Made by a program: the position numbers and the translations under genes. 64,000 nt of DNA. Source: Minisyncoccota bacterium (GTDB taxonomy: Bacteria > Patescibacteriota > Minisyncoccia > Phycocordibacterales > VMEP01). The stretch's first letter is position 1, and each line of letters starts with the position of its first letter. This document shows, one piece after another, positions 33,662 to 57,797 of this stretch. The stretch lies in the NCBI GenBank assembly GCA_041661305.1, contig JBAZUR010000003.1, forward strand, positions 5,103 through 69,102, in the 5' to 3' direction. Below the pieces are notes generated by a model, which was given only the letters and a program-made list of their open reading frames with translations, searched no databases and was not told where the DNA came from.

Positions 33662-33677
33662 TTTCGCTTGTTTGATC

Positions 33678-33711
33678 AAAAGCGGTGGCATTTGCCACCG
33701 CTTTCTTTTTT
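33678..33711 (+). terminator. Terminator (aaagcggtggcatttgccaccgcttt + T-run)
   Basis: Inverted repeat plus T-run. Confidence 0.75.
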
Positions 33712-33765
33712 ATGCACTACATGGTAAAAGTTTATTAGTTCAATTACACAGAGGGGTTCTTTCCA

Positions 33766-34871: not shown

Positions 34872-34880
34872 TAGTGATTC

Positions 34881-34915
34881 ACCACCGCACCCTAAAGGTG
34901 CGGTGGCTTTCTTTT
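34881..34915 (+). terminator. Terminator (accaccgcaccctaaaggtgcggtggc + T-run)
   Basis: Inverted repeat plus T-run. Confidence 0.75.
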
Positions 34916-34978
34916 ATATTTTGAAAGTGTTAGTTTTGTAATAGAAATTTTGTTTTTTCAATCAGGAGGAGTGCAAAA

Positions 34979-37369: not shown

Positions 37370-40300
37370 ATGGAAGAAGAAAAGAAAGAAACACAAGTTT
37401 CCCTAAACGAAAAAAGAATTCTTAAGTTTTGGAAAGAAAACCAAATTTTCGAGAAAACTTTAGAGAAAAAAACTAATGATAAGTTTGTTTTTTACGATGG
37501 GCCACCTTTTGCGACAGGGGAGCCACACTACGGACATGTTTTAGCTGGAACAATAAAAGATGCTATTCCGCGCTACCAAACAATGCGTGGTAATTATGTT
37601 CGTAGGCAATGGGGTTGGGATTGCCACGGTCTTCCAATAGAAAACTTGATTGAGCAGGAATTAAATCTTGGTCATAAAAAAGATATTGAAGAATATGGTA
37701 TCGATAAGTTTAATGGGGCGGCACAGAATGCGGTTCTTCGTTTTGATTCCAATTGGAAAGAGGTTGTTCCAAGACTCGGTCGTTTTGTGGACATGGAGCA
37801 CGCTTATAAAACAATGGATGCGACCTACACAGAATCTATTTGGTGGGCGTTTAAGACACTTCACGATAAAGGTTTTGTTTATGAGGGACATAAAATTATG
37901 TATGTTTGTCCACGTTGCGAAACACCGCTTGCTCAGTCAGAGGTAGCCGATGGCTATACAGATGTGACAGATATTTCTGTAACTGCGAAGTTTGAGTTAG
38001 TCGATGAGCCAGGGACTTATCTTTTGGCGTGGACAACGACACCATGGACATTGCCAGGGAACGTCGCGATTGCGGTGAATAAAGATATTGATTATGTAAA
38101 AGTTGAGAACGAAGGTGTGAATTATATTGTTGCGAAAGAGAGATTAGATTTTGTTTTTAAAACTACTTATAAAATAGAAAAAGAATTCAAGGGCTCTGAA
38201 CTAGTTGGCAAATCATACGTTCCAGTTTTTGATTATTATTACAACGATAAGACAATAAAAAATCACGAGAACGGCTGGAAGGTTTACCATGCTGATTTTG
38301 TGACAGCAGATAGTGGTACTGGTATTGCTCACGAAGCCCCAGCTTTTGGTGCGGAAGATATGGAGCTTGGAATTAAAGAGAAGCTTCCTTTTGTTCAGCA
38401 CATTTCAATGAACGGACAGTTTAAGTCTGAGGTAAAAGATTTTGCTGGTAGCTATGTTAAACAAAAAGGGGATACTCAATCTGCTGATATAGAGATAATT
38501 AAACACCTTGCTCAAAAAGGAACCCTATTTTCAAAAGAAAAAATTGTTCACTCGTACCCACTTTGTTGGCGATGCGAAACTCCGCTTTTGAACTACGCTT
38601 CTAGTTCGTGGTTTATTGAAGTGACTAAATTTAAAGATAAACTCGTTCTAGAAAATAAAAAAGTTCATTGGGTGCCTGAGGCAATCGGCGCAAATCGTTT
38701 TGGTAAGTGGCTTGAATCAGCACGGGATTGGGCGGTATCCCGCGCTCGCTTTTGGGGAGCGCCAATTCCAGTGTGGAAATGTGAGAAATGCGAGAAGCCG
38801 GTTGTGGTCGGCTCTCTTTCGGATATTAAAAAAATGTCTCCACTCTCGCAAAATAAATATTTTGTAATAAGGCACGGGCAGGCAGAGAGCAATGTGAGTG
38901 GAACGCCAAAAACGAAAGAAAGTGATGTTGATAATCTAACCGAGAAGGGAATAAGTCAGGTTAAAGAAAGTGCGCATTCTTTAGAGAAAGAAAATATTGA
39001 TTTGATTATCTCGTCTCCACTTATGCGCACTCGGCAAACTGCTACGGTTCTTGCCGAAGAGCTTGGTTTGAAAAACGAAGATGTTGTTTTTGATCCACGA
39101 TTGGCTGAAATTAACGTCGGCGCGTTTAATGGAAAAACCACCGCAGAGTATCATGGATATTTTTCTTCTTTGGAAGAGAAGTTTATTAAAAAAGCACCAG
39201 AAGGTGAGAGTTTGCAGGATTTAAAGAAAAGAGTTTTTGAGGCTGTTTCAGAAGCGGAGGAAAAATATGAAGGAAAAAATATTTTGATTGTTACCCATGA
39301 ATATACAGCGTGGATGCTTTTCACAATGGCAAAGGGGTTGTCGATTAGTGAGTCAGTTAAAATGAAACAAGAAAGAGGAGATGACTTCTTAAAAAATGCA
39401 GGAGTAGAAGAAATGGTTTTTGAGTCTATACCACGAAACAAAGAAGGTGATCTTGATTTTCATCGACCGTATATTGATGAAGTAAAACTAAATTGTGAAT
39501 GTGGTGGAAAAATGAATCGAGTGCTCGAAGTTTTCGATTGCTGGTTTGAGTCTGGTTCAATGCCATACGCTCAGTTTCATTATCCTTTTGAAAATAAGGA
39601 TGAGTTTAAGAATAATTTTCCTGCGGATTTTATCGCTGAAGGTTTGGATCAAACACGAGGGTGGTTTTACACACTATTGGTTTTAAGCACAGCTCTTTTT
39701 GGAAAAGCGCCGTTTAAGAACGTGATTGTGAATGGGATGGTGATGGCCGAAGACGGCAAGAAAATATCTAAGCGCCTAAAAAATTATCCTGACCCAATTG
39801 CTGTTGTAGAAAAATATGGAGCAGACGCACTTCGATATTATTTGCTTTCCTCTCCGATTATGCGCGCTGAGGATTTGAATCTTTCCGAAGCTGGTATTTC
39901 TGAGATATATAGAAAGATTATTGTTCGCCTTGAAAATGTTTATTCTTTTTATGCGTTGTATGCCGATGAAACTATTGAAGCAAGCGATAGAAGTAAGAAT
40001 GTTTTGGATTTGTGGATTCTCGCGAGATTAAACGAACTTAAAAACGAAGTGACCGAAGGGATGGATAAATATGAGATTGATAGGGCAACAAGACCGATTA
40101 ACGACTTCATAGAAGATTTGTCGACTTGGTATATTCGCCGTTCTCGCGAACGCTTTAAGAATGATGAAAACCCTGATGATAAAAAGGTTGCTTTAGAAAC
40201 AACCCTGTTTGTGTTGAAAGAATTGTCTAAAGTTCTTGCCCCATTTACACCTTTTGTGGCGGAAGATTTATATCAAAAAATTAAAACCGATAAAGACAAA

Positions 40301-40831
40301 GAAAGTGTTCATTTGGAGAAATGGCCAGAAGGGGGGTCTGTTGATAAAAATCTGATTGAGAAAATGCTCAATACAAGAAGAATTGTTGAACAAGCACTTG
40401 CTCTACGTGCTTCGTATGCGATTAAAGTTAGACAACCGCTATCTTTACTTGAAGTATCATCTCAGGATGGTGAATTTTTTGATGAATTAATTAAAGATGA
40501 AGTAAACGTTAAGGAGGTTGTTGTTAAAGAATCACACGAAAAAGGTTCTATGATGCTTAGTAATGAGATCACCCCCGAACTAAAAGAAGAGGGGCAGATG
40601 CGTGAATTTATTCGTGCGGTACAAGAGCTAAGGAAGAAGGAAAAACTAAACCCCAAAGATATTGTTATCTTGCAAATTGTGACAGAGGAAATGGGTAAAA
40701 ATCTTGTGAATAAGTGGCTGAACCAAATTAAGCAAACAGCAACAGTAAAAGAAGTTGAGTTTTTGGCTGATGTCGATGGTGAAAAAGTTTCTTTTGATGA
40801 GATGTCTTTTGTCTTAAGGTTGGTTAGATAA
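37370..40831 (+). CDS. ileS: Isoleucine--tRNA ligase (type 2) with an internal histidine-phosphatase-like domain insertion
   Basis: PPFATGEPHYGHVLAGT (HIGH), WDCHGLP, KISKRLKN (KMSKS-like), zinc knuckles. A RHGQAESN...IVTHEY segment is embedded at about nt 38851-39450. Confidence 0.9.
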   Translation: MEEEKKETQVSLNEKRILKFWKENQIFEKTLEKKTNDKFVFYDGPPFATGEPHYGHVLAGTIKDAIPRYQTMRGNYVRRQWGWDCHGLPIENLIEQELNLGHKKDIEEYGIDKFNGAAQNAVLRFDSNWKEVVPRLGRFVDMEHAYKTMDATYTESIWWAFKTLHDKGFVYEGHKIMYVCPRCETPLAQSEVADGYTDVTDISVTAKFELVDEPGTYLLAWTTTPWTLPGNVAIAVNKDIDYVKVENEGVNYIVAKERLDFVFKTTYKIEKEFKGSELVGKSYVPVFDYYYNDKTIKNHENGWKVYHADFVTADSGTGIAHEAPAFGAEDMELGIKEKLPFVQHISMNGQFKSEVKDFAGSYVKQKGDTQSADIEIIKHLAQKGTLFSKEKIVHSYPLCWRCETPLLNYASSSWFIEVTKFKDKLVLENKKVHWVPEAIGANRFGKWLESARDWAVSRARFWGAPIPVWKCEKCEKPVVVGSLSDIKKMSPLSQNKYFVIRHGQAESNVSGTPKTKESDVDNLTEKGISQVKESAHSLEKENIDLIISSPLMRTRQTATVLAEELGLKNEDVVFDPRLAEINVGAFNGKTTAEYHGYFSSLEEKFIKKAPEGESLQDLKKRVFEAVSEAEEKYEGKNILIVTHEYTAWMLFTMAKGLSISESVKMKQERGDDFLKNAGVEEMVFESIPRNKEGDLDFHRPYIDEVKLNCECGGKMNRVLEVFDCWFESGSMPYAQFHYPFENKDEFKNNFPADFIAEGLDQTRGWFYTLLVLSTALFGKAPFKNVIVNGMVMAEDGKKISKRLKNYPDPIAVVEKYGADALRYYLLSSPIMRAEDLNLSEAGISEIYRKIIVRLENVYSFYALYADETIEASDRSKNVLDLWILARLNELKNEVTEGMDKYEIDRATRPINDFIEDLSTWYIRRSRERFKNDENPDDKKVALETTLFVLKELSKVLAPFTPFVAEDLYQKIKTDKDKESVHLEKWPEGGSVDKNLIEKMLNTRRIVEQALALRASYAIKVRQPLSLLEVSSQDGEFFDELIKDEVNVKEVVVKESHEKGSMMLSNEITPELKEEGQMREFIRAVQELRKKEKLNPKDIVILQIVTEEMGKNLVNKWLNQIKQTATVKEVEFLADVDGEKVSFDEMSFVLRLVR

Positions 40832-44695: not shown

Positions 44696-46345
44696 CTATT
44701 CAGGCTTTTTGTTTTTAGAAAGACAATATATTTCATTAGCAAAAGTTGGCAGAAATATTCTACCTGTTGTTTTGTTGAATGCTATTTTATCTGTAATTCT
44801 TTCTGTGGCCTGGAAAAATGCTGTGTTTTTTCCTGTTTTAAGATCGAGTTCATAAAGTCTTCCATCGTTTGATCCGATGTAAACACTGTCGTCGATTATT
44901 TCTGGGGAAGAAAAAATTCTGGCATTTGTTTTGAATTTCCAAACAACCACTCCTTTATCTAAGTCTATGCAGTACAGACTTTTATCAAGAGAGGATACAT
45001 AAGCAAAGCCGTCATTAACTGTAGGGGTAGAAAATATTGCCTCATCCGTTTTTATTTTATGAATTAGCTTGCCGGTCTTAGTTTCTAAAACGTATACACA
45101 TGAATCAAATGAACCAAAGACAACAACCCCAAGTTTTTCATCGAAGGAAAATGACCCCTTTATTTCACCCTCCGTCTTAAATGTCCAAAGAAGTTTTCCT
45201 GTTTTAACATCAAGACCATATACCGAAAAATCATTACACCCACAAATCACTATTCCTAGTTTAGAAGAATAAGCAGGTGAAGATTGAGTAAAATCAGACA
45301 TTGAGAACTCCCACATTTTTTCCCCCGAAGAAGAATCTAGGGCAACAAGGGCTCCTTGTTTTTTCCATAAACCAAACTCAAGACCGACAAAAATTGCACC
45401 GATGTCCTCTGCAATACAAGGAGATGACCCAATCCAGTCTGCTTCTAAGAAAACCCATTTTCTTTTGCCAGTAGAGGAATTAAGTGCGTAAAAATTACCA
45501 TCATTAGCCCCAAAATAAACAACATCTTTATAAACAACAGGGGAAGAGAAGGCCTTTCTTTTCTGAGCCCCTAATAAAATTTTATAATCCCAAACAGCCT
45601 TTCCGTCTATTTGGTTTAACGCCCAAAATACTCCATTGTCTCCGCCGAAATAAATTTTTTCTTTATCAACAGCTGGCGCTGATTTTGCGGTAACTAGGAA
45701 ATAGTTTGGTTTTTCACTTTTAAAATACCAGTCAATCTTAAAAGGAGTAGGAACGGGAAGCTCGGTCTTATCAATCAAATTAGAAACACCAAGCGAGCCC
45801 CCAAAGTCTTCAAGGGTAAAAAGGGAAATAATTTTTATTCCTCGTTCCGTGAGATAGGAGTAATATGGTAAATCTCGAAACCTTAAAATAACAAAAACAG
45901 CGCTTACTTTTTTACCAAGTGATTCAATAACCTCAATTTGCCGAATAAAACTTTTGCCACTATTAATAATATCGTCAACCAAAATAATTTTATCGTTGGA
46001 AATTTCACCCTCAATCATTCGAAGAAGGCCACTTTTTTTACGAGACTTTCGTATAAAAAATCCATTAGATATTTTATTTTTTTCCCTTACTTTTAAAACA
46101 AACGCTGTTATGAGAGGGATTGAAGCAACCTCGATACCGCCAATTTGAAAGGGATGTTCGTTTTTAAATTTTTCCCAAAATAATTCACTTACTATATTGA
46201 GAATTTCCGCACCAAGAAGTACTTTTCTAAAATCAAAAATCCAATCAGTTTCTGTGCCGTTTTGATCAACACTCCTTGCTTCTTTTTTTGTTATGAAGAC
46301 CTCTTTTTCTATTACTTCTTTAAGTTTTAATTGTGACGATTCCAT
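44696..46345 (-). CDS. Fusion protein: N-terminal type I phosphoribosyltransferase domain plus C-terminal PQQ-like beta-propeller
   Basis: PRTase PRPP-binding motif ILVDDIINSGKSF. The C-terminal half has repeated YxGxxDGxxYALxxxTGKxxW blades (BamB/PQQ-like). Confidence 0.6.
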   Translation of the reverse strand: MESSQLKLKEVIEKEVFITKKEARSVDQNGTETDWIFDFRKVLLGAEILNIVSELFWEKFKNEHPFQIGGIEVASIPLITAFVLKVREKNKISNGFFIRKSRKKSGLLRMIEGEISNDKIILVDDIINSGKSFIRQIEVIESLGKKVSAVFVILRFRDLPYYSYLTERGIKIISLFTLEDFGGSLGVSNLIDKTELPVPTPFKIDWYFKSEKPNYFLVTAKSAPAVDKEKIYFGGDNGVFWALNQIDGKAVWDYKILLGAQKRKAFSSPVVYKDVVYFGANDGNFYALNSSTGKRKWVFLEADWIGSSPCIAEDIGAIFVGLEFGLWKKQGALVALDSSSGEKMWEFSMSDFTQSSPAYSSKLGIVICGCNDFSVYGLDVKTGKLLWTFKTEGEIKGSFSFDEKLGVVVFGSFDSCVYVLETKTGKLIHKIKTDEAIFSTPTVNDGFAYVSSLDKSLYCIDLDKGVVVWKFKTNARIFSSPEIIDDSVYIGSNDGRLYELDLKTGKNTAFFQATERITDKIAFNKTTGRIFLPTFANEIYCLSKNKKPE

Positions 46346-46415: not shown

Positions 46416-48323
46416 ATGTTTTTAACCAACTTTAGCATACTGGAAAAGCTCTATGAGGTTTATTACTTCAAACAAATCAACTCTTTTTCTACGTGGCTTG
46501 TAAAAAATTCATTAGAAGATAGAAGTGTTTTTATTGACTTACCACATCAGGAAAGATTTTTGAAAGACAATTTTTCTAAAAATAAAGAAAAAAAGATCTC
46601 CTTTATTTTTTGTAAACCAAAAGGACTTCAAGGAGCACTTGAAAAAAATAATTTAAGTAACACAGATTCATGGAAGGATATTTTTTTGTCGAACGAGTTT
46701 GAGGTTTGGGAAAATAAAGAAATGTACCATGGTAGTAGTTTTCCAATCAGGTTTGGTTTAAATGAAGACGAGAAAAAAGAAGCACTTGGTTATGCAAGAA
46801 AAACCCTTGAAGTTTTTTTAAAAACAGGGAATCGAGAAAAAGTTTTATCTAAAAATTTATCAGAAAGATTTTTGGATAATGCGAGTGTTGATGTTGCGCT
46901 ATGGGTTAATGGGGAATTGCGTGGGTCACGCATTGTTGAAAACTTGCCACTTAGTGAGGCGATTGAGGAAGCTTCGATTCGTGCTTGTCGCGACGAGAGA
47001 TTCAAGCCTCTTTCTTTGGAAGAATTAGATAATACAACGATTGAAGTTGCGATACTTTCTAGTTTGCGCTTACCGCTTATGGAAAAAGAGAAAAGGGATA
47101 ATGATATCTACACGGAAAAAGGGTATGTGATGTCTGTGAAAGGAAAAACTGGTTGGTTTTTGCCAGCTGTTTTTAACTGCCTGACATTTAATGGGCTGGA
47201 TGATTTTTTAATAAACCTTATTGAAAAAAAGATTGGATTTCCAAAAGTTTACTTACCAGAAGCTTCAGTCGAAATATTTGAGGTTGATAATTTTGTTGAG
47301 TCAGTAGAAAAGACCCCGCTAGCACTTAAGGGGCCAGTTGTTTTAAGAAGTAGTTTGACTGAGGTGGGAGACAAAAAGCTTCTAGACTATTTTTATGAAG
47401 GTGCAGACAAGAGTGCAGATTTTCTTTGTAGAATACAAGAAAAAGATGGCAATATTCCCCCGGTTATAAACCCACTTACAGGAAAGGCAACTCAGGTAGA
47501 TTGGGTTCGCCTCGCCTTGTCGTCTTGGGCTCTTTTTGAATGGGGGAGGAAACAAGGAAATAGTGCCTACGAGGAATCAGCAAAGAAAAGTTTTTTGTAC
47601 CTTAGGGACAATTTATACAGCCACTCTTGTCTACCTGCATATTCTCGTTGTCTTTCGTTTATATACTATAGAAGGTTGGCGCTCTCTTTAGGGGAAATAG
47701 AAGAAGTCCAAAAGAGCAATAAAGTTATTGCTAGTATTATTTTAAATTTGGAATACGAGCCAATTTTATATTCGCAAATCGCCCATCATTTAATCGATAT
47801 TTCAAAAGGGAATGACGTTTCTTTAATGAAAGCAAAAGAGTTTACAGAAATTGTTTTAGCTGATTATCAAAAAAAGATTAAAGAAAATAACTCGAGCTTA
47901 GAATTGGCGAGATACCCCGAACTAATATACTTGCTTCGCGAAATTGGGGAGAGGGCAGGAAACACTGAACTTATAAAAAAATCGGAAGAAATTGAAAGTT
48001 GGTTTATTTCGAAGCAGTTTAGTGACGGGAGTTTCCCAAGCAAAGTTAATACAACATTTTCGTATGTAAGGGGTACGGGGAAAATATTTGAAGTGTTGTG
48101 TTTGAATCAAAAGAAAAATATAGATGTAATTGAAAAAGTTATAACGTGGATTATTGATATGCAATACATAGAAGATAACACTTTTTTTGTGAAAAATGAC
48201 ATAAAGGAACAAATCCTAGGAGGATTTCGCCATGATTACTTAAATCAAGCTGTTTGGATTGACGCCACAGCTCATGTGTTAATTGGAGCAACAAGACTTA
48301 AAAAGTCACGTAATCTCTTGTAG
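46416..48323 (+). CDS. AMMECR1-domain protein with a large C-terminal extension
   Basis: AMMECR1-like segment VALWVNGELRGSRI....ASIRACRDERFKPLS...IEVAILSSL, followed by about 400 aa of unknown alpha-helical region. Confidence 0.5.
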   Translation: MFLTNFSILEKLYEVYYFKQINSFSTWLVKNSLEDRSVFIDLPHQERFLKDNFSKNKEKKISFIFCKPKGLQGALEKNNLSNTDSWKDIFLSNEFEVWENKEMYHGSSFPIRFGLNEDEKKEALGYARKTLEVFLKTGNREKVLSKNLSERFLDNASVDVALWVNGELRGSRIVENLPLSEAIEEASIRACRDERFKPLSLEELDNTTIEVAILSSLRLPLMEKEKRDNDIYTEKGYVMSVKGKTGWFLPAVFNCLTFNGLDDFLINLIEKKIGFPKVYLPEASVEIFEVDNFVESVEKTPLALKGPVVLRSSLTEVGDKKLLDYFYEGADKSADFLCRIQEKDGNIPPVINPLTGKATQVDWVRLALSSWALFEWGRKQGNSAYEESAKKSFLYLRDNLYSHSCLPAYSRCLSFIYYRRLALSLGEIEEVQKSNKVIASIILNLEYEPILYSQIAHHLIDISKGNDVSLMKAKEFTEIVLADYQKKIKENNSSLELARYPELIYLLREIGERAGNTELIKKSEEIESWFISKQFSDGSFPSKVNTTFSYVRGTGKIFEVLCLNQKKNIDVIEKVITWIIDMQYIEDNTFFVKNDIKEQILGGFRHDYLNQAVWIDATAHVLIGATRLKKSRNLL

Positions 48324-48367: not shown

Positions 48368-48871
48368 ATGAATATCTCAATAAAAGAAATAGTAATTGCA
48401 CTTTCGTCTGTGGTGGTAACCATATTGGTTGTTTACTTAACACCATTAAAAAATCTAAATATTGTTGAGCCAACGATAAAAGACGTTGATCCAAAAGCTT
48501 TTTATACAGAGTTTCTTAAGAATAAGGACGGTTTCGTTTTTGTTGATGTAAGGCCGAGAGAGGCGTACAACGCCGTTCATGCTGAGGGTTCTATAAATAT
48601 CCCACTACACACTCTTTATGACGAAAGGCACAACCTTCCAAAGAGAGGTAAGCAAATAGTTCTTATTTGTAGTGGTGGGCGAGCCTCTGGTGTAGCTTAT
48701 GGATATTTGGAACATCATGGATTCCTTAACCTTCAAAGAATTGATGGGGGAATAGAAAAATGGTTGGCGGATGGCTTACCTATTGTTTCTAGTCGTGCAT
48801 TAGACGAAATTAAAGATATTCTTGATAAAGAGAAGGTTTCGTCGGTAGTTATCCCATGTGAGGTTTCGTAA
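48368..48871 (+). CDS. Membrane-anchored rhodanese-domain protein
   Basis: N-terminal transmembrane segment. Active-site loop ICSGGRASGVAYG. Confidence 0.7.
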   Translation: MNISIKEIVIALSSVVVTILVVYLTPLKNLNIVEPTIKDVDPKAFYTEFLKNKDGFVFVDVRPREAYNAVHAEGSINIPLHTLYDERHNLPKRGKQIVLICSGGRASGVAYGYLEHHGFLNLQRIDGGIEKWLADGLPIVSSRALDEIKDILDKEKVSSVVIPCEVS

Positions 48872-48891: not shown

Positions 48892-49182
48892 ATGATTCAG
48901 AAAGCAAAAAAAAGAACATCATTTTTTTTAGGCATCTTGGTTACAAGCATTTTGGGAACTATTGGTGGTTATGTAAATTCTAATTACTCAAAAGACGGTT
49001 CTTTCCTTGTATCTGTTGCTAAGGCAGATGTTCCTTCGCCGTTTGGTGGTACTGGTTTTGAAGGTGGTAGCGCTGGGGAAAGTGCTCTTGGTGTTGATGC
49101 TGGTAGTGGCGGTGGTAGTGGTTGCGATGGTGGTAGCGGTGGTAGTGGTGACGGTGGTGGTAGCGGAGGTGATTGCGGTTAA
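48892..49182 (+). CDS. Candidate RiPP (TOMM/LAP-type) precursor A: conserved N-terminal region plus Gly/Ser/Cys/Asp-rich C-terminal core
   Basis: N-terminus MIQKAKKRTSFFLGILVTSILGTIGGYVNSNYSK, then AKADVP, then a core ...GSGGGSGCDGGSGGSGDGGGSGGDCG. A paralog lies at 51335. A YcaO / SagB-dehydrogenase pair is 4.4 kb downstream. Confidence 0.5.
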   Translation: MIQKAKKRTSFFLGILVTSILGTIGGYVNSNYSKDGSFLVSVAKADVPSPFGGTGFEGGSAGESALGVDAGSGGGSGCDGGSGGSGDGGGSGGDCG

Positions 49183-49224
49183 CCTCTAAACAAGTATAGA
49201 AGTAGATAATATATTTAATTTATA

Positions 49225-50367
49225 ATGATAAATAAAAAGTTAGCTTTTTTGATTTACTTACTTCTTGGTGCACTTGTTGTTCTTTCTGGTTATCTTTTTT
49301 ACTATTTTTTTTATAAAGATATTGGGAAAGAGTCAAAGTTTTCTAATGAATTTCTAACCGAGGAATTAAATAAGAATAAAAACATTTCTTTAAAGAGAGA
49401 TGTTCTAGTAAAAGAAAATGAATTTTGGGCTAACGCTGACAAGCTTAGAAATGAAGGAAACAATGAGCTTGCCATCTTGGAGTACGAGAAAGCTATAGGA
49501 GTTGCTGGTACAGCAGAAGAACAAGGAATAATAAAAATTAGTCTCGGGCGTTTGTATTATAGATTGGGGAAATTTGACTTAGGGTCAAAAATATTTAAAG
49601 AGGTAGTAGGGAATCCTGATTATTCGAATATAACTAGAGCCTACGCTGTTGAGGCTATGGGTAATGAATATTATTCAAAATATGATCAGGAATTATTTAG
49701 TTCTATTTTTAACGAGGAACCATACCAAAGCTTTCTGGTGGCGAAAGATAAAGAACTTTCTATGAGGAAGTTGTTTGAGTATGGCACCACTTTTTACCCA
49801 TTACCACTATCAGAGGCTAGAATTGCTCAGTGGTACGCTAGTGAGTTAGTGAGAATAAAGAATAGTGGTTTAGAGGACCAAGAAACAAAAGCAAAAATAG
49901 ATTCTATGAAAGTGGTTATTAGAGAAAAATTAAATCTTGCCAATAAAGGCATAAAGGACATAGAAAATACTACGAATGCTCCAAGAATTCCAGTTGTTTT
50001 AAATAGGCTAGGTATTATTTCCATGAAAATGTATTTGTTTGGAGATGAGTCTTTTGGAAACCCGGCAGATTTGTTTGAAAGATCATTAGTATATTCGAAG
50101 CTATATAACTTAACTTCAACTGAAGGTTTTACTTATTATAATTACGCAGTTTTTTTGGCGAGGGTTTACGGCAAAGGAAAGACTAGTGAGATAGGTACCT
50201 TGTTGGGAAACCTTTATAATACCGATAAGTATAAAAATACCGATGTGTTTGTTTTTTTGAAAAACCAGAAAAATATCGAAGGAACAGTCAAAGATGACAT
50301 CTTGCTTTTAGCGTCTTTTGATCCAAAATTTAAGAAGCTACTATCCGAGCTAGGGTGGAGCTTTTGA
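49225..50367 (+). CDS. Hypothetical membrane-anchored protein (TPR-like helical repeats), partner of precursor A
   Basis: N-terminal transmembrane segment LAFLIYLLLGALVVLSGYLFYYFFY. Same architecture as 51681-52883. Confidence 0.45.
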   Translation: MINKKLAFLIYLLLGALVVLSGYLFYYFFYKDIGKESKFSNEFLTEELNKNKNISLKRDVLVKENEFWANADKLRNEGNNELAILEYEKAIGVAGTAEEQGIIKISLGRLYYRLGKFDLGSKIFKEVVGNPDYSNITRAYAVEAMGNEYYSKYDQELFSSIFNEEPYQSFLVAKDKELSMRKLFEYGTTFYPLPLSEARIAQWYASELVRIKNSGLEDQETKAKIDSMKVVIREKLNLANKGIKDIENTTNAPRIPVVLNRLGIISMKMYLFGDESFGNPADLFERSLVYSKLYNLTSTEGFTYYNYAVFLARVYGKGKTSEIGTLLGNLYNTDKYKNTDVFVFLKNQKNIEGTVKDDILLLASFDPKFKKLLSELGWSF

Positions 50368-50395
50368 TGGTAAAAGACTATCGGTAATAAAAAGA

Positions 50396-50426
50396 ATTGC
50401 CCAGGGTTATTAGCCTTGGGCAATTT
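50396..50426. terminator. Bidirectional terminator (aattgcccagggttattagccttgggcaatt)
   Basis: Inverted repeat between convergent genes. Confidence 0.65.
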
Positions 50427-50447
50427 GTTTCTTGCTGACGGTGGTGG

Positions 50448-51059
50448 TCAGTTCGTCTTGCGTACTTCAACCACGACCTGGTAGAGGTCAAATTCCGGCG
50501 ATTCGTACGAACAAATCATCGCCAGCTCCGGACAGTAGAAGTATTTCTCCATCGCCGGACGGAACGCTTCAGCTAGTTGGTTTGTGGCACGAATTTCGTA
50601 GGCCTTGAATACCCCGCCAGGCAGCTTGATGTCGCCGTATCCTACAACCTCTGCACTTCGCGTGCGTTTCTGAACCCGCCCGTTTGAGCTTTCTTGCTCA
50701 AACGATCCCTTCCAGCTATTTCCGTTTTTCATAGGAAACTGCAAGAAGTAGGAGTGCGGTTTGTAGGTTGCGTACGGGAACGGGCGAACCTTCGTGCCGA
50801 GGTCCTTGTTGAAGATGGTTTCCTTCTTTTCTTTGCCACCTTCTTCTTGGACCAAAAAAACAAAGTCCTCGCCTCGGCGTTCAAGAAACTCCGTTGTAAG
50901 ACATTCCGGCTTTTCGCGCACGTAGTAGCCGGTTTTGCACGTTTTTACCACGAGCCCCTTGGTCGGTTCCGGGTTTAAAGTGGCCGGCACTTCCTCCGCA
51001 GACACAAAAAGCGGAAAAATAAAAGCGCCGAAGGCACACACGAGCTTGATGATATTCAT
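50448..51059 (-). CDS. Hypothetical secreted protein (signal peptide; GC-rich gene)
   Basis: Signal peptide MNIIKLVCAFGAFIFPLFVSA. GC visibly above the window background. Confidence 0.5.
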   Translation of the reverse strand: MNIIKLVCAFGAFIFPLFVSAEEVPATLNPEPTKGLVVKTCKTGYYVREKPECLTTEFLERRGEDFVFLVQEEGGKEKKETIFNKDLGTKVRPFPYATYKPHSYFLQFPMKNGNSWKGSFEQESSNGRVQKRTRSAEVVGYGDIKLPGGVFKAYEIRATNQLAEAFRPAMEKYFYCPELAMICSYESPEFDLYQVVVEVRKTN

Positions 51060-51334
51060 GACGAACCTCCTTGTGTTGTATTGAAATACTAGATTTACAA
51101 TAGATCGAAGCTTCTTTCATGGTACAACAACCGACATTAAAAGTCAATACCGCTTTATAATATTCATGTTATTAGTTAAATTATTAGGAATTAAAATTAG
51201 AGAGGAAAATTAATGGGCGAGAGTCACAAAAATAAATAAACAGGTAACATTTATATACGAGGATTAGGGAAACCAACAGGAAGACATAGTTATCCACACG
51301 ATAGGTGTATTTTAGTGATATCATTGTCTGTAGC

Positions 51335-51616
51335 ATGATTCAGAAAGCAAAAAAGAAAACATCATTTTTATTAAGTATTCTTATTACTGGAATACTCGGG
51401 ACTATTGGTGGTTATGTAAACTCAAATTACTCAAAAAACAGTTCCTTGCTTGCTCCGATCGCTAAGGCTGATATACCTGCGACAAGCGCGGATATTTTTG
51501 GCGGCAGTAGCGCGGGGGACGCTGGTAGCGGTGACGGTGGCGGCAGTGGTGGTGATGGTGGCGGCAGTGGTGGTGATTGTAGTAGTAGCGGTGGTGACGG
51601 TGGTAGTGGATTCTAG
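51335..51616 (+). CDS. Candidate RiPP precursor B (paralog of 48892-49182)
   Basis: First ~120 nt nearly identical to precursor A at nucleotide level (atgattcagaaagcaaaaaa...). The core is GGSSAGDAGSGDGGGSGGDGGGSGGDCSSSGGDGGSGF. Confidence 0.5.
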   Translation: MIQKAKKKTSFLLSILITGILGTIGGYVNSNYSKNSSLLAPIAKADIPATSADIFGGSSAGDAGSGDGGGSGGDGGGSGGDCSSSGGDGGSGF

Positions 51617-51680
51617 TAAATAATGACGCAGGCTGGTGCGGTGATTAATATTTAGATTTGCAGTTTTTATTCTTTAAATT

Positions 51681-52883
51681 ATGGACGAAAAAGAAGAAAT
51701 TATAATTACCGAAGAAGATAATTTACCTAATAAGGTTTCTTATAGAAAAGTATCAATTTACGTACTTACTTTCATTGTATTTTTTATGGCTTCTTATGAA
51801 GGTTTTTATCGCGTTAAGATGATATCTGAAAAAAGAGAAGCAGGTAAGATTTTGGAAAGGGATAAAGCTTACTATGATAGCTTGCTCCAAAAAGATAAGG
51901 ATTATTATGAGAGTTTGCTTAAAAATAACCCTTCAGGGCTTCAGAACTCATTCGTAGAAGATATTAAGAGTGGCGTTAATAGTGGGGAGACAAAATCTGC
52001 CATATATTTTATAACGCATCGTTTTTTTGATAATGGTGGGAATATCTATGAAATTTATGATTACATAGAAAGTCACCCGGAACTATCTTTTCTTAAAGAG
52101 GCCGAAGGTATTTATCCAGATGTATTTGAACAGATAAAAGAAAAGAAGTTGCCATCAATATATACTTATTCCGCTTTTTATGCGTACCTTGCATACGTTG
52201 AAGTACTAAATAAATACGGTTATGCAGATGTTGCTACTTTAGCAACGGCGGCTAATCAGTATGCTGGAAATCTATACTTTAAAACAGTACTAACAAAAGA
52301 AATGGAGGAAAATGGCGAGGCTAGTCGCCTCAAAGATGTGTCCCGTGATTTAAAAAAATCATTAGATTTTCTAAACATGTCTGGTGGTGATGTGGAAAAA
52401 ATACTTGATGGTAAATTAACCTCAGACGATATGCCGTCCAGGGATATTTTGGTTGGTCTAAATCAGTATGCTTCAGCCTTAAGATACCTTGAAGCACTTG
52501 GAGTTAAAGCAACCTCAACAAAAACCTCACGAGAAGTTTTTGATTTTGCTATGGATTACTCTGCTCGTTTTGTGTTGGAATTAAATATTTTTACTTCTCT
52601 TGTTAATGCCTCAACACTAGCAATACTCGATTCAAGTACTTCTGAGGAAATAAAAATAGCACTGCTTCCAATTCTTAATTTCGATACAAAAAAACCCAAT
52701 TCTTACAAGGGGAGTGTTATTAGAAAAATTATACAATCAAGATTTGAACAAAAACCAAAAGAAATTAGTTACACAAGGTTGGATCTTTATAGTAAAAGAA
52801 ATGCCTTATTACTTGCAAGTAAGGTTCCAGATTTTAAGGCTTGGTTGATGTATAACGGGTGGGTAGAAGCTGATTTTAAGTAA
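51681..52883 (+). CDS. Hypothetical membrane-anchored protein, partner of precursor B
   Basis: N-terminal transmembrane segment VSIYVLTFIVFFMASY, about 400 aa, helical. Same gene order as the 49225 protein. Confidence 0.45.
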   Translation: MDEKEEIIITEEDNLPNKVSYRKVSIYVLTFIVFFMASYEGFYRVKMISEKREAGKILERDKAYYDSLLQKDKDYYESLLKNNPSGLQNSFVEDIKSGVNSGETKSAIYFITHRFFDNGGNIYEIYDYIESHPELSFLKEAEGIYPDVFEQIKEKKLPSIYTYSAFYAYLAYVEVLNKYGYADVATLATAANQYAGNLYFKTVLTKEMEENGEASRLKDVSRDLKKSLDFLNMSGGDVEKILDGKLTSDDMPSRDILVGLNQYASALRYLEALGVKATSTKTSREVFDFAMDYSARFVLELNIFTSLVNASTLAILDSSTSEEIKIALLPILNFDTKKPNSYKGSVIRKIIQSRFEQKPKEISYTRLDLYSKRNALLLASKVPDFKAWLMYNGWVEADFK

Positions 52884-53017: not shown

Positions 53018-53458
53018 ATGAAGATCTTCAAAAAAACTGTTTTTACTCTGATCGCCTTGCTCTTCGTTTTCGTCGGCGCTTCGTTTGCACAAACGAAGCT
53101 GGCGGCAGACGCGAGTGACGCAGGTAAGTCGGATGTAGCGGCAAATATTCCGGCCAACTGCGCCGCCTTTCTTGGGGCTTGGGTAGGTCGCTGGGAATAT
53201 GGCAATTACGGCGAAATGCGCCTGCAGGTTCTTGAAGTTGATACAAATTGTGTCGCCAAGGGTGCCTACGGAGGAAATACGGGGAAAGCATGGCCATACG
53301 AAGGTGCAGAAATCAAGGCCGACAAGATGTCCTGGCTTTGTAGCAAAGCCAGGACGGGGACATGTGTCTTCGAAAATCACGGCGATACGCTTTGGGCAAA
53401 CTACCACGATCCTTCCGGTGGCAAGAACAACGGCGTTTTCAAGAAAGTTGCCCAGTAA
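53018..53458 (+). CDS. Small secreted protein (signal peptide; strongly GC-rich gene)
   Basis: MKIFKKTVFTLIALLFVFVGASFAQT signal peptide. Followed by a strong terminator. The overlapping ORFs on other frames look like GC artefacts. Confidence 0.45.
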   Translation: MKIFKKTVFTLIALLFVFVGASFAQTKLAADASDAGKSDVAANIPANCAAFLGAWVGRWEYGNYGEMRLQVLEVDTNCVAKGAYGGNTGKAWPYEGAEIKADKMSWLCSKARTGTCVFENHGDTLWANYHDPSGGKNNGVFKKVAQ

Positions 53459-53494: not shown

Positions 53495-53527
53495 AGGGGG
53501 GGCGTTAACGCCCCCCCCTTTTTTTAT
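53495..53527 (+). terminator. Terminator (gggggggcgttaacgccccccc + T-run)
   Basis: Perfect GC-rich hairpin plus T-run. Confidence 0.8.
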
Positions 53528-53604: not shown

Positions 53605-54336
53605 ATGAGACCATTTTTATATAAATTTTTTCACAGGTTAACTAAAGATAAAACAGAGGGTGGTTTAATAAAAATTCCTGCTGATATGGCAATGTGGCCA
53701 GAAAGTTGGAAAATTGTGGAGTACAAAAAAATTTCTTTTTTTGATCCAATAAAACTTGCGGATAACGTAGACACAAAACTTTTTGAAATTCTGCAAAAAA
53801 GAACATCTGACCGTAAGTCACTATCTAGTAATGTTGTTACGTTAGAAAAAATATCAAAAATATTAAAGTGTGCTTGTGGAGAAATAAAAAGGAAAGATGG
53901 ATCCACGCACAGAACGGCCCCGTCTGGTGGTGGCAGGTATTCAATTGAATTGTATTTTTTGCTATTTAAAGAGGCTGAAGGGTTAAAGACCGGTGTGTAT
54001 CATTATGGTGTAGAGAATCATCAGCTTGAATTGATTGAACAAAAAAATTTTTCAGAAGAAGACATACTTTCTTACCAAAGCGACAAATGGGCGACTGTTG
54101 GTAGTGGTATGATGTGCATGACCAGTGTTTTTGATCGTTTTGCGCGCAAATATGGCAGTCGGGGGTATCGTTATATGTTATTAGAAGCCGGGCACATTGG
54201 TCAGAATATATTGCTCTCTGGTGTAGAAAATGATTTGGTTTTTGTACCAATTGGGTCGTCTAATGATGTAAGAGTAGAATCACTACTTAAAATAGACGGC
54301 AATAGCGAGAGCCTGGTCTACGCGATGTCTTTTTAA
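53605..54336 (+). CDS. SagB-type dehydrogenase (nitroreductase-family, McbC-like) of TOMM biosynthesis
   Basis: RTSDRKS, APSGGGRYSIELY, YRYMLLEAGHIGQNILL. These are typical of FMN-dependent SagB/McbC dehydrogenases. Confidence 0.75.
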   Translation: MRPFLYKFFHRLTKDKTEGGLIKIPADMAMWPESWKIVEYKKISFFDPIKLADNVDTKLFEILQKRTSDRKSLSSNVVTLEKISKILKCACGEIKRKDGSTHRTAPSGGGRYSIELYFLLFKEAEGLKTGVYHYGVENHQLELIEQKNFSEEDILSYQSDKWATVGSGMMCMTSVFDRFARKYGSRGYRYMLLEAGHIGQNILLSGVENDLVFVPIGSSNDVRVESLLKIDGNSESLVYAMSF

Positions 54337-54340
54337 TTTT

Positions 54341-55798
54341 ATGGAAAATAATTTATTTAATTCACCTGGGTATATTTTGGCAAAAGATTACGTTAATGAT
54401 ATTCGCCAAATGCAAAAGAACGGACCATGGAAGTTACCACTTGGTGTTGGTGACAGATTTCATATTTTTTTACTATCATTGTTTTTAAAATTTTCTTGGT
54501 TTAAGGATATTTATATTAAATATCCGCATGACCATAGTCCCGCATATGACATAATTATTAATTTCTTGAAAAGAAATAAAATATTGTCGGGGGTTATTAA
54601 GTTAAGCTCTGCTTCTTACTGGGGTATTAATATATACGTTTCGCACCTTTTTAACGGAGAGGTACTTTTGGTAAAAAGTACAGGACATCATAAAGAAAGC
54701 GATATAGCACTTTCTAAAACCATAGGAGAATTAATAGAAAGGGCTGTTTCTGGTGTTCGCGATGAAAATAATAATTTTATTTTTGGTTCGTTTAATGAGT
54801 TAAAAACAAAATATAAAAATATTTTTTACCCGCCTGTATACCATAGGTTTTTACCACAACAAAAGGATTTATTTAAAGATTTGAGAGTAGATGATGACCA
54901 AGAAATGGAGTGGGTTAAGGGCTTTAATTTTTTAACCAGTGAAGTTGCTTTGATCCCAAAAAACATTACCTCATGGAGACGCAAAAGAAACATAATAACC
55001 ATGAACCCGACTACAAGCGGTTCTGCGGGCGGGTTTTCAAAAGAGGATGTTATTAAGAATTCGATATTAGAATATATAGAAAGAGATTCATTTTTAATAC
55101 ATTGGTTAACGCAAATAGCCCCAAAAGTTATATCAAATGAATCATTACCAGAAGATTTATTTTTATATATTAAAGGTTTTAACAGTATTGGTATTAGTGC
55201 TTATGTTTTAGACACAACAACCAACGTGGGAATACCCTCGGCTTGTGTGGTTGTGAGAAAAAATAATTTGAATAAGAAGTCAGTTGCTGTCTCTGGTGGC
55301 GCTGGTATTGATTTACATACTGCAATCAAGAGAGCACTAGAAGAGGCTCAGCAGTGTGTTTTTAATCTTGATAAAAATGAAAGTGGTACTAAGGTTAGTG
55401 ATGTTAAGCCTTTTATAAGCGAAATAGACAGAGAAGAGAGAATAAGGATGTGGCAAGGAGAGGAATGGGTCAAACTTTTTGAATGGTTTATATCTGGTGA
55501 TGTTATTGAGTATAAAAATGACAATAACCTTGTATTAGAAACTAAAGATGAAATAACTTTTCTCAAAAATGTTTTCTCTAAGTTGGGAAGTGAATATACT
55601 CCGTTTATATATTTCCCTAAAAATAAAGCAATGGAGAAGCTTGGTTTTCAAGTGGCCCAAGCGTTTATCCCTTTTTGTTTCCCTCTGTTTTTGGTGGAAA
55701 AATATGGAACCTTCGATAGCGATAGGCTGAAACAATTCGCTAAATATAAAGGCGTTGATAATTTTAAATTAAATCCATACCCACATCCGTTCCCATAG
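54341..55798 (+). CDS. YcaO-domain protein (ATP-dependent cyclodehydratase)
   Basis: SKTIGELIERA, NPTTSGSAGGFSKEDVIKNSILEYIERD (YcaO S.G.A.G....E..ERD signature), SGGAGIDLHTAIKRALEEAQQ. Confidence 0.8.
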   Translation: MENNLFNSPGYILAKDYVNDIRQMQKNGPWKLPLGVGDRFHIFLLSLFLKFSWFKDIYIKYPHDHSPAYDIIINFLKRNKILSGVIKLSSASYWGINIYVSHLFNGEVLLVKSTGHHKESDIALSKTIGELIERAVSGVRDENNNFIFGSFNELKTKYKNIFYPPVYHRFLPQQKDLFKDLRVDDDQEMEWVKGFNFLTSEVALIPKNITSWRRKRNIITMNPTTSGSAGGFSKEDVIKNSILEYIERDSFLIHWLTQIAPKVISNESLPEDLFLYIKGFNSIGISAYVLDTTTNVGIPSACVVVRKNNLNKKSVAVSGGAGIDLHTAIKRALEEAQQCVFNLDKNESGTKVSDVKPFISEIDREERIRMWQGEEWVKLFEWFISGDVIEYKNDNNLVLETKDEITFLKNVFSKLGSEYTPFIYFPKNKAMEKLGFQVAQAFIPFCFPLFLVEKYGTFDSDRLKQFAKYKGVDNFKLNPYPHPFP

Positions 55799-55844: not shown

Positions 55845-56651
55845 GTGGTATTATTTATCAAAGTGAATAAAAATATAAAAAATAATTTTTATATTTCAGC
55901 GACTATTCTGGCAATAAGTGCTTTTGTTTTGTTTGTCTCTGTTTTTAATAATAAGTCTGCGTGGTTGATATGGAACAATTTTCATTGTGAACGCATTGCA
56001 AGTGCACTGGAGCAAAATGACCCCAAGCTATTTTTTGATATCGGTAATTATTATTTTGGAAAAGGTGCCTACGATTTAAAAAAAGTTGAAAGTTACTACA
56101 AGAAGGCGTTATTTCTAGAGCCTTCTTTGGAGGGGCTACATTACCAGTTGGCGCGAGTTTATTTTATAAAAAATGAGCTCTCTTTAGCGAGATATGAAAT
56201 CAATAAAGAGCTAGAATTACATCCAGATCTTAAGCGTTCATATTATGTTCGGGGGCTTATTAATGGGTACGATAATAATTTAGATGGGGCGATAGAAGAT
56301 TTTACAGAATTTCTTAAATGGAGTCCGGAGAGTTGGGCTGGTCACAATGATTTGGCTTGGATTTATTTTAAAAAAGGGAATTATGAAAAATCTCTTGCGA
56401 CCAGCGAAGAAGGTTTGAAGTATTATGCGGGTAGTGTCTGGCTTCTAAACTCAAAAGGGGTGGCACTAATTAATCTTGGGCGAAAAGAGGAAGCGAAAAT
56501 TGTTTTATCTCAGGCTTTATTGATTGCAGAAGGGATGAGCGCAGAAGATTGGGGTAAGTCATATCCAGGAAATAATCCGGATGTTTACATCGACGGCTTA
56601 GAGGCAATGAAAATATCAATAAAAAGAAATCTCGCTCTCGCGGGGAACTGA
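55845..56651 (+). CDS. Membrane-anchored TPR-repeat protein
   Basis: N-terminal transmembrane segment, then TPR-like repeats (YYKKALFLEP, ARYEINKELELHP, AIEDFTEFLKWSP). Confidence 0.55.
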   Translation: MVLFIKVNKNIKNNFYISATILAISAFVLFVSVFNNKSAWLIWNNFHCERIASALEQNDPKLFFDIGNYYFGKGAYDLKKVESYYKKALFLEPSLEGLHYQLARVYFIKNELSLARYEINKELELHPDLKRSYYVRGLINGYDNNLDGAIEDFTEFLKWSPESWAGHNDLAWIYFKKGNYEKSLATSEEGLKYYAGSVWLLNSKGVALINLGRKEEAKIVLSQALLIAEGMSAEDWGKSYPGNNPDVYIDGLEAMKISIKRNLALAGN

Positions 56652-56723: not shown

Positions 56724-57797
56724 ATGTTAAATCGAATTATTTCGCCTAAAGGGAAAAGAAGTTTACTTTCATTACTGACGCTTTCCACTGTTTTTTTTAT
56801 TGTCGGTTTTAGTAGCGGAGAGGTATCTATAAAAAATATTGCACTTAATGAATCTCCAGAGATTGGGTTTACTTCACTTTCACCGAACGGTCTTTTGGGT
56901 GGAGAAATTATTCCCGCATCATGTGAGTCTGGAAATTATCATGATGCACCGGATTTTGGAACAGCATGTACCGCATCAAGTGTTTGCGGGCAGGCTTACG
57001 GCACAATTGGGTGTGGTGGTGTTTGTAGTGTGGCTGCTCCGTCAGTGCCAATTAATTATGGCCAATCCTGTTCCTCATCAAATATCTGCGGTTCAAACCA
57101 AGGAACAATAGTGTGTGATGGGTCCTGCAGTGCCATAGCCCCAGCCGTCCCCAGCAATTACGGTAGAGTCTGTCTCGTCTCAAATGTCTGTGGTCAATCA
57201 AACCAAGGAACAATAGGTTGTGATGGCACATGTACTGTCAAAGAAGCACCAGCGCTTCCATCAGGATACGGAACACCATGTCAATCGGGAACTAATAGCT
57301 GTGGTCAAAAAGCTACAGGAATAATCGGTTGTGGTGGATCATGTACAGCAGTTACCCCGTCTGATTCAAACTGCACCACATGTCCACTACCAAATGGTAA
57401 CGGAGTTTGTAACACAGCGGAAAATAACTCAAATTGTCCAGCCGACTGTCCATATGTCGCTCCAGCAACACCAACAGCACCTGCAGGAGAAGGGGCAATC
57501 TGGACACCGGCTACAGAATGGACACTAACAGCTTCACCAAACCCAATATTCGCCAACACAAGAACAACGGTAAGTTGGTCAGTTAGTGGAGCAACAGGAT
57601 GTACTCTTGTTGGAGTCGGGGCTGTTAGTGGAAAAGAAACAGATAGATTTGTCGGTGGCCCTGCTCTTGATTATCAATCAAGTAAACTACAAGAAAACAC
57701 AGACTTCACCCTAACTTGTTCCAATGCCTACAGTGGTAGAAAAGACTCGAAGACTGTTCGTGTTAATGTGCGTACGATTAAAGTACAGGAGTTCTAG
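56724..57797 (+). CDS. Secreted Cys/Gly/Ser-rich repeat protein (five C-x-CGQ-x-GTIGCxGxC modules)
   Basis: Signal peptide or transmembrane segment LLSLLTLSTVFFIVGF. About 40 Cys in repeats such as SSVCGQAYGTIGCGGVCSVAAP. Confidence 0.55.
   Translation: MLNRIISPKGKRSLLSLLTLSTVFFIVGFSSGEVSIKNIALNESPEIGFTSLSPNGLLGGEIIPASCESGNYHDAPDFGTACTASSVCGQAYGTIGCGGVCSVAAPSVPINYGQSCSSSNICGSNQGTIVCDGSCSAIAPAVPSNYGRVCLVSNVCGQSNQGTIGCDGTCTVKEAPALPSGYGTPCQSGTNSCGQKATGIIGCGGSCTAVTPSDSNCTTCPLPNGNGVCNTAENNSNCPADCPYVAPATPTAPAGEGAIWTPATEWTLTASPNPIFANTRTTVSWSVSGATGCTLVGVGAVSGKETDRFVGGPALDYQSSKLQENTDFTLTCSNAYSGRKDSKTVRVNVRTIKVQEF

Follow-up and report, generated by a model that had tools for sequence, protein, structure and literature searches.

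Linear peptides that contain azol(in)es (LAPs, or thiazole/oxazole-modified microcins, TOMMs), which belong to the peptides made by ribosomes and modified after translation (RiPPs), have been known from bacteria of the Candidate Phyla Radiation (CPR, Patescibacteria) since 2020, in the form of clusters that combine a YcaO gene with a nitroreductase gene. Sharrar et al. (2020, mBio, PMC7298704) counted 110 LAP clusters in 93 CPR genomes, 51 Parcubacteria among them, and the passages of that paper devoted to these clusters describe one from Microgenomates, with a peptidase and a precursor of 84 amino acids (aa). Two further classes of RiPP invite comparison. Bufferins (PMC11626156) are modified by MNIO enzymes and carry a Sec signal; they acquire Cys-derived heterocycles while still in the cytoplasm, and Sec export and cleavage by signal peptidase come afterwards, an arrangement called 'rare'. 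TMcins (PMC13252029) contain a transmembrane helix and are made in the membrane, and their clusters encode an 'escort' membrane protein of unassigned family. In the present study, we analysed a 64-kb stretch of contig JBAZUR010000003.1 (assembly GCA_041661305.1; hereafter the window, meaning the whole stretch) from a Candidatus Paceibacterota (Parcubacteria, CPR) metagenome-assembled genome. It holds two small open reading frames (ORFs), A and B, each followed by the gene of a larger membrane-anchored protein, and we think it probable, though well short of assured, that the small ORFs encode paralogous precursors of a CPR-specific LAP/TOMM-type RiPP system.

The two cassettes have the following parts (window positions, strand, feature).

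48892..49026, + strand, leader of putative precursor A, aa 1-45: basic N-region KAKKR, hydrophobic segment of ~19 aa, conserved NSNYSKDGSFLVSVAKA, A-x-A end
49027..49182, + strand, core of putative precursor A, aa 46-96 and stop: DVPSPFGG...GSGCDGG...GGDCG
49225..50367, + strand, large protein A, 380 aa: N-terminal transmembrane helix, then a TPR-type helical repeat; partner of cores ending ...GGDCG
51335..51469, + strand, leader of putative precursor B, aa 1-45: MIQKAKKKTSFLLSILITGILGTIGGYVNSNYSKNSSLLAPIAKA
51470..51616, + strand, core of putative precursor B, aa 46-93 and stop: DIPATSADIFGG...GGDCSSSGGDGGSGF
51681..52883, + strand, large protein B, 400 aa: one transmembrane helix and a helical-repeat domain; partner of cores ending ...GGDCSSS...

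Small ORF A (48892-49182, + strand) encodes 96 aa and small ORF B (51335-51616, + strand) 93 aa, the latter from the ATG at 51335, the GTG at 51305 giving an upstream extension only; both products have database entries, WC724_03450 and WC724_03465, as hypothetical proteins, and both ORFs start with ATGATTCAGAAAGCAAAAAA. BLASTP aligns the two proteins over residues 1-49 (36/49 identities, E 3e-26) and extends no further than AKAD(V/I)P. The common stretch thus comprises the N-terminal 45-49 aa, after which the acidic Gly/Ser/Asp cores diverge, and the conserved leader with a hypervariable core that an earlier note on this DNA had described is borne out. The same note had called the first ~120 nt nearly identical; similar they are, but to a lesser degree than claimed, with a DNA identity of 80% across the initial 120 nt and of 78% for codons 1-49. 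The ATG itself marks the boundary of the likeness: upstream of it, the two stretches of 100 nt share just 27% identity and are unrelated. Leader differences are spread over the three codon positions as 11/2/19 (11 synonymous and 13 non-synonymous codons), and since they lie mainly at third positions, the shared N-terminal region indicates a protein under purifying selection. Core A is composed of 23 Gly, 8 Ser, 5 Asp and 2 Cys among other residues, with no Lys or Arg, and contains an imperfect 27-nt tandem repeat, while core B (20 Gly, 10 Ser, 7 Asp, 1 Cys, no basic residue) contains an imperfect 21-nt one. The combination expected of a LAP/TOMM precursor, a conserved leader with a Cys/Ser/Thr-rich core, is present both in the window, where the cores hold 8 and 10 Ser, and in the alignments of relatives. 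Pfam and NCBIfam scans of the small proteins returned no significant match.

The leader motif occurs twice in the 64-kb window, against 0 occurrences expected by chance, and a profile of the small family retrieved only 53 clusters from 1.84 billion representative proteins, all of the same architecture and aligned from residue ~1, most of them 64-131 aa long. The N-terminus is therefore no generic Sec signal, and a generic signal peptide, which by the earlier note's own account would have overturned its reading, was excluded as an explanation on these two counts. The AKA|D cleavage site proposed in that note proved to be one instance of a general junction: in 35/35 family members leader and core meet at [A/V/S]-x-A followed by D, E or N, while the neighbouring residues vary. 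The cores of the family consist of 36% Gly, 15% Ser, 13% Asp and 6% Cys, with almost no Lys or Arg. Those of relatives contain up to 10 Cys and motifs such as GDGCGGCS, GCSDGCY and SCSSCTGSSCSG, which are typical of azole-peptide substrates.

Directly 3' of cassette B, 0.7 kb on, stand the genes of a SagB-type dehydrogenase and a YcaO protein, each in single copy, of which the earlier note had made no use.

53605..54336, + strand, SagB-family FMN (flavin mononucleotide)-dependent peptide dehydrogenase: TIGR03605 1.6e-33, PF00881 4.9e-17
54341..55798, + strand, YcaO cyclodehydratase: PF02624 7.4e-34; N-terminal extension of ~119 aa; C-terminal PxPxP motif NPYPHPFP

The SagB protein scores 115.6 bits against TIGR03605 (cut-off 78.4) and is expected to oxidise azolines to azoles; its sequence, read directly, contains ...RKYGSRGYRY.... 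The YcaO protein, 0.7-5 kb from the two small genes, reaches 118 bits against PF02624 (cut-off 25.7). Its best NCBIfam match is the SagD-type TIGR03604 (2.2e-41), among solved structures it comes closest to MJ1094, TruD and LynD (E 3e-11 to 4e-8), and its N-terminal ~120 aa gave no Pfam match. YcaOs that form azolines typically have a PxPxP motif at the C-terminus, and azoline dehydrogenases a Lys-Tyr motif. Neither enzyme has a hydrophobic N-terminus.

We then compared 31 loci, 24 of which were contributed by a metagenome scan with a B-type profile; many of the contigs are short, and absent genes often mean truncated contigs. A YcaO gene was present in 21 of the 31, SagB and beta-propeller genes in 18 each and a TPR protein in 14. 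The close relatives L001-L003 are syntenic with the window, L001 having cassette B only. Over ~35 loci from several CPR genera the commonest gene order is SagB-YcaO-small-large, seen for instance in Kaiserbacteria (L004), Paceibacterota (L005) and Moranbacteria (L006), whose YcaO proteins are only ~36% identical to that of the window. Ten or more loci from different genera have the small gene directly 3' of YcaO, a SagB-type dehydrogenase adjoins YcaO in nearly every locus, and a leader-bearing small ORF is found no more than 250 nt upstream of the large gene in 22/35 testable cases. Distant A-type homologs (24-37% identity) also have a small leader-plus-core gene upstream, near YcaO/SagB. With the two enzymes 0.7 kb downstream, small-large pairs next to YcaO and SagB in many CPR genera and azole-type cores in relatives, the RiPP-precursor reading of the earlier note has held up, and the products of the two small genes are very likely precursor peptides of the adjacent azole-forming enzymes, YcaO and SagB.

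Some homologous 'precursors' have a HINT/intein-like domain of ~150 aa inserted in the variable core (L014, 21-704, + strand; L019, 3227-3922, + strand; L013, 2-646, + strand; further P0164, P0171 and P0178). The insert matches Pfam PT-HINT above the cut-off (1.1e-11 and 3.9e-11), starts with C(F/L)P.GT.IST and ends with VHTY.A.G(I/V)(R/V)VHN, then S, Y, K or D; beyond it the protein has only ~12 Gly/Cys-rich residues, and just 2-3 in P0171 and P0178. A B-type large gene still lies 3' of the HINT-bearing gene in L013, L014 and L019. The literature searched contained no paper on inteins or HINT domains in YcaO precursors, and an autoprocessing domain within a putative YcaO substrate appears to be undescribed there. 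Another variant, P0159 (225 aa), has the usual leader and a Gly/Cys core, then a C-terminal extension of ~110 aa that is partly hydrophobic and not of HINT type.

Obviously, a number of observations weigh against the assignment of the small ORFs to a LAP/TOMM-type system. The window cores are poor in Cys (2 in A, 1 in B), and one relative, L032, has none at all. The YcaO protein, at 142 bits, falls below the curated cut-off of TIGR03604, the SagD subfamily (219.25). No E1-like, Ocin-ThiF-like or RRE (RiPP recognition element) partner was found among the 37 window ORFs scanned and in the precomputed Pfam annotation of related loci. In place of the short C-region of a Sec signal (about 3-7 residues), a conserved stretch of ~17 residues (NSNYSKDGSFLVSVAKA) lies between the hydrophobic segment and A-x-A. 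For the large proteins, the topology read from charges beside the transmembrane helix is ambiguous, with 3.07 against 2.66 basic residues. Finally, thiol-redox genes are frequent nearby (a rhodanese here; DsbA-like, DCC1-like and DsbB genes at other loci), and their recurrence hints that some Cys remain thiols or disulfides instead of becoming thiazoles; it also suggests thiol or sulfur chemistry on exported peptides. The only DsbA-like gene found in the window (29238-29990) is 19 kb away. Two further genes of the cluster bear on how these points are to be weighed.

48368..48871, + strand, rhodanese with N-terminal transmembrane helix and active-site loop CSGGRAS: PF00581 1.3e-14
56724..57797, + strand, Cys-rich repeat protein, 357 aa, with N-terminal hydrophobic segment: no Pfam/NCBIfam match; 3' of the TPR gene in close relatives

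The scarcity of Cys and the score of YcaO below the SagD-family cut-off would both be expected if the small proteins were ordinary secreted or anchored Gly-rich acidic surface proteins, with YcaO/SagB directed at some other target, e.g., the Cys-rich 357-aa protein, and with the linkage reflecting a shared envelope function; several more secreted or anchored proteins in the cluster fit the same picture. We regard this as improbable, given the small gene directly after YcaO in those different genera, the textbook TOMM cores of relatives and a conserved leader before a hypervariable core, the typical pattern of a precursor, and given that the Cys-rich protein occurs in 5 loci only. A different doubt concerns the chemistry, namely that the YcaO protein makes backbone thioamides or amidines and not azoles, with the rhodanese of module A as the supplier of sulfur. 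The rhodanese loop is intact and the gene accompanies module A in a distant genus as well, thioamide formers are among the YcaOs that lack an E1-like partner, and the second-best NCBIfam match of this one is the McrA-glycine thioamidation family (1.3e-15). On the other side are the SagB-type dehydrogenase that accompanies YcaO almost throughout, the C-terminal PxPxP motif, and the rhodanese itself, which module B and most loci lack; moreover, no TfuA gene was found in the cluster or among another 20 window ORFs, which are housekeeping genes. Thioamide or amidine formation is thus very hard to believe, and azole-type precursors remain the reading we prefer. The same scans revealed no ABC transporter or peptidase gene.

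The large proteins had been taken in the earlier note for paralogs. That description suits only part of their length: both are membrane-anchored and helical, and profile-profile comparison of the family alignments (hhalign) shows the C-terminal ~130 residues to be homologous (probability 96.6%, E 6.6e-10), with the common ending ...LA..(D/V)P(K/E)FK..L...GW...DF, but it detected no likeness between the N-terminal ~230 residues, and the sole BLASTP match covers 23 C-terminal residues (E 0.023). AlphaFold models of both are confident (predicted local distance difference test, pLDDT, 88.8 for A and 86.6 for B), all-helical with one N-terminal transmembrane helix, and TPR-like in fold; the model of large A is a clean TPR fold, and that of large B is a helical repeat without enzyme-like match. 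In Pfam and NCBIfam scans the two gave only sub-threshold TPR_8 and NttE matches. The B family is CPR-wide, with at least 138 sequence clusters and no Pfam model, and the A family is small (10 sequence clusters). The 268-aa TPR protein of the cluster was tried as a third large paralog and excluded (hhalign probability 0.4%). Six B-type homologs of 521-537 aa (P0048, P0050, P0072, P0074, P0092 and P0132) carry a hydrophilic, signal-less domain of ~150 aa before the single transmembrane helix, an arrangement that places the helical domain of the large proteins, by prediction, outside the cell. The extra domain, which would be cytoplasmic, is only weakly NUDIX-like (E 0.018).

The earlier note had further proposed a duplicated two-gene module. 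The pairing itself is supported by the 22/35 large genes with a small ORF upstream and by the match between core tail and large type, ...GGDCG with type A and ...GGDCSSS... with type B; what fails is a recent duplication. The block rhodanese-smallA-largeA-203aa lies 3' of cassette B in L002 and 5' of it in the window, hence it represents a movable four-gene block and no local tandem copy, and the order rhodanese-small-largeA is kept in the window, in L002, in L008 and in the distant Kaiserbacteria locus L033. Recent tandem duplication of the whole cassette was excluded by this position of block A, by the unrelated upstream regions and by the 23% identity of the large proteins; modules A and B are, on these comparisons, old and distinct. 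Within the window genome, then, leaders A and B are 76% identical against 23% for their large partners, whereas for B-type modules of different genera the leaders are 29-47% identical and the large proteins 42-54%. The first contrast points to leader homogenisation or exchange within the genome. Taken together, the two comparisons suggest that the leader tracks something common within a genome, the obvious candidates being the single YcaO/SagB pair and/or the export machinery.

These figures also bear on the possibility that YcaO has its missing cytoplasmic partner in the large proteins, which would then be docking scaffolds, tethered to the membrane, that hold the leader and offer up the core in place of an E1-like/RRE protein. 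No such protein turned up in the scans, no gene adjoins YcaO plus small gene as constantly as the large gene does, TPR and other helical repeats bind peptides, and the charge bias around the transmembrane helix is not decisive. Leader-binding scaffolds, nevertheless, should be alike where leaders are alike, and the reverse is seen, with large types that differ over their N-terminal 230 aa beside leaders of 76% identity; it is the core tail, not the leader, that co-varies with the large type, and the six long homologs put the helical domain outside. We therefore doubt the scaffold strongly: co-variation of tail and large protein, together with such similar leaders, argues for a product-specific binder.

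The charge distribution of the small proteins implies an N-in/C-out orientation: in all 15 members, 4 basic residues stand on the N-side of the hydrophobic segment, compared with 1.1 on its C-side. The basic N-region KAKK(R/K), a 19-aa segment with hydropathy 1.7-2.1 and small residues at -3/-1 ([A/V/S]-x-A) are those of a Sec signal, while the long 17-aa spacer means that the peptide may remain membrane-anchored or be cut by another protease. It is conceivable, though unlikely, that the N-terminal segment is a permanent signal-anchor, that the azole-modified acidic tail is displayed on the surface with the TPR-like partner, and that A-x-A-D is a binding element; an episymbiotic lineage such as this one could use the display to attach to its host cell or to sense it. 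The uncharged stretch of ~19-25 aa has transmembrane length and small-xxx-small residues, the spacer exceeds what is usual for signal peptidase I, and the cluster has neither protease nor exporter. Vertical conservation of the cluster beside housekeeping genes in very small genomes would also accord with display, and TMcins provide a precedent for membrane-resident RiPP precursors (PMC13252029). Against a permanent anchor, the -3/-1 rule holds in 35/35 members while the surrounding residues vary, as for a cleavage site, and the segment is less hydrophobic (mean 1.8) than the true anchors in the large proteins (2.4-2.6).

Under the azole-peptide interpretation with a cleaved leader, the following scenario can be drawn from the sequences. 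In the cytoplasm, the ATP-dependent YcaO would cyclodehydrate core Cys and possibly Ser, and SagB would then oxidise the azolines to azoles. One enzyme pair may modify several precursors, recognised via the shared leader, which would explain why the leaders are 76% identical despite partners of 23% identity. The leader would be bipartite, its first part a basic N-region and hydrophobic segment of Sec type and its second the conserved NYSK..S(F/L)L.P.A.A, and would take the modified core across the membrane in N-in/C-out orientation. Cleavage at [A/V/S]-x-A before D, E or N is likely, with signal peptidase I as the simplest candidate, since the neighbourhood holds no gene for a dedicated protease or an ABC exporter. 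Outside the membrane, the cognate anchored TPR-like protein would bind the core or its tail, ...GGDCG in type A and ...GGDCSSS... in type B, possibly as escort, holder, immunity protein or receptor; module A would contribute its own rhodanese and move as a block. Antagonism, metal binding and host contact are candidate roles of the product. More tentatively still, and as a possibility we would not lean on, the clusters may represent a hitherto undescribed, membrane-routed CPR branch of azole-peptide biosynthesis, in which YcaO/SagB act without an E1-like/RRE partner, a bipartite leader doubles as Sec signal or anchor, several anionic Gly-rich precursors have cognate extracytoplasmic TPR-like receptors, the peptide is surface-displayed or secreted for episymbiont-host contact or metal handling, and some members undergo HINT autoprocessing.

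The remaining features of the cluster in the window are as follows.

44696..46345, - strand, phosphoribosyltransferase-like domain fused to a PQQ-type beta-propeller, without signal peptide: Beta-prop_ACSF4 2.4e-58, PQQ_2 8.8e-35, Pribosyltran 1.1e-5
46416..48323, + strand, AMMECR1 domain with C-terminal region of ~340 aa, a conserved neighbour: PF01871 9.2e-14, TIGR04335 5.5e-18
50394..50426, + strand, terminator-like hairpin (stem of 15 bp) in the gap that separates large A from the convergent 203-aa gene
50448..51059, - strand, 203-aa protein with signal peptide, GC 0.51, part of the movable block Rhod-smallA-largeA: no Pfam match
53018..53458, + strand, 146-aa protein with signal peptide, GC 0.515, recurring in the cluster: no Pfam or PDB sequence match
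53496..53517, + strand, strong terminator-like hairpin (9 G-C pairs and a T-run) closing the smallB-largeB-146aa unit
55845..56651, + strand, membrane-anchored TPR protein, 268 aa, in 14 loci: TPR_2 5.6e-14 and other TPR models

The phosphoribosyltransferase-beta-propeller fusion is a conserved cluster member, with homologs in 18/31 related loci. The AMMECR1 fusion, whose residues 296-635 have no Pfam match, recurs in L001, L002, L007-L009 and L025-L027. The Cys-rich protein is built on the repeat unit ...YG..C.S.N.CG..QGTI.C.G.C... and is duplicated in L001 (12312-13217 and 17271-18290) and in L003. A promoter scan (16 sites, 22.7 expected) was uninformative.

The two signal-peptide proteins of 203 and 146 aa come after cassettes A and B, respectively. 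Their GC content, ~0.51, stands out from surroundings of 0.33-0.36, and in eight loci of several genera the counterparts of the 146-aa protein exceed their own locus by 8-19 GC points. Homologs of these high-GC proteins were found in L001-L003, L006, L008-L010 and L019; neither protein has sequence relatives in the PDB, and a common origin of the two was excluded (BLASTP E 4.7). Elsewhere in the window, the isoleucyl-tRNA synthetase (37370-40831, + strand, 1153 aa) carries a His_Phos_1 domain (1.8e-37) at residues 498-667, between its catalytic and anticodon-binding parts. At 33000-35000 the GC content rises to 0.49-0.52 over ThyX (32837-33661) and a dCTP-deaminase-like gene (33609-34871), a region that may be acquired DNA.

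CPR bacteria have tiny genomes and few recognised natural-product pathways, and a cluster of ~13 kb kept beside housekeeping genes across Parcubacteria lineages probably matters for episymbiotic life. The much greater likeness of leaders than of partner proteins in one genome amounts to a natural experiment on leader recognition, and the small family (53 sequence clusters) is short enough for direct heterologous reconstitution. With its YcaO gene beside a nitroreductase-family gene and a small putative precursor, the window cluster resembles the CPR clusters of Sharrar et al. and very probably belongs to their set (PMC7298704). The passages of that paper on these clusters make no mention of a signal-like leader, an A-x-A-D junction, a small-plus-large module, beta-propeller, AMMECR1 or TPR neighbours, or multiple precursor types. 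More generally, the literature searched held no description of a signal-like bipartite leader, an invariant junction or a precursor-specific TPR-like partner module, nor, for such clusters, of a missing E1-like partner or of leader homogenisation within a genome.

An N-terminal Sec-type signal on a RiPP precursor is shared with the bufferins, but the enzymes are unrelated (MNIO/DUF692 with DUF2063 there, YcaO/SagB here; neither an MNIO enzyme nor a DUF2063 partner had a Pfam match in the cluster), and bufferins are folded small proteins, not Gly-rich repeats, and have no paired TPR partner. TMcins likewise have a hydrophobic helix in the precursor and a membrane protein that accompanies the peptide. 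Their helix, in contrast, lies in the mature product, after a 45-aa leader, and their processing relies on a DUF3267 S2P-like protease, DsbA and an ABC transporter, none of which is encoded in the cluster, without YcaO/SagB; the TMcin escort has two transmembrane helices and is no TPR protein. The greatest likeness is to the known LAP/TOMM systems, with which the CPR cluster has in common a gene-encoded precursor with conserved leader and Gly/Ser/Cys-rich core, the GCGGCS motifs of relatives resembling those of microcin B17, and a YcaO cyclodehydratase adjoining a SagB/McbC-type dehydrogenase. It differs from them in having no McbB- or SagC-type E1-like/RRE partner, dedicated leader protease or ABC exporter, in the signal-peptide-like hydrophobic segment of the leader, in its strongly acidic cores, and in its confinement to CPR bacteria, where each precursor has its own membrane-anchored TPR-like partner. 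For RiPP biology, three oddities thus come together in one cluster: a YcaO of the azole-forming kind without E1-like/RRE partner, a Sec-like leader of a sort so far established for bufferins, and TPR-like partners specific to their precursors.

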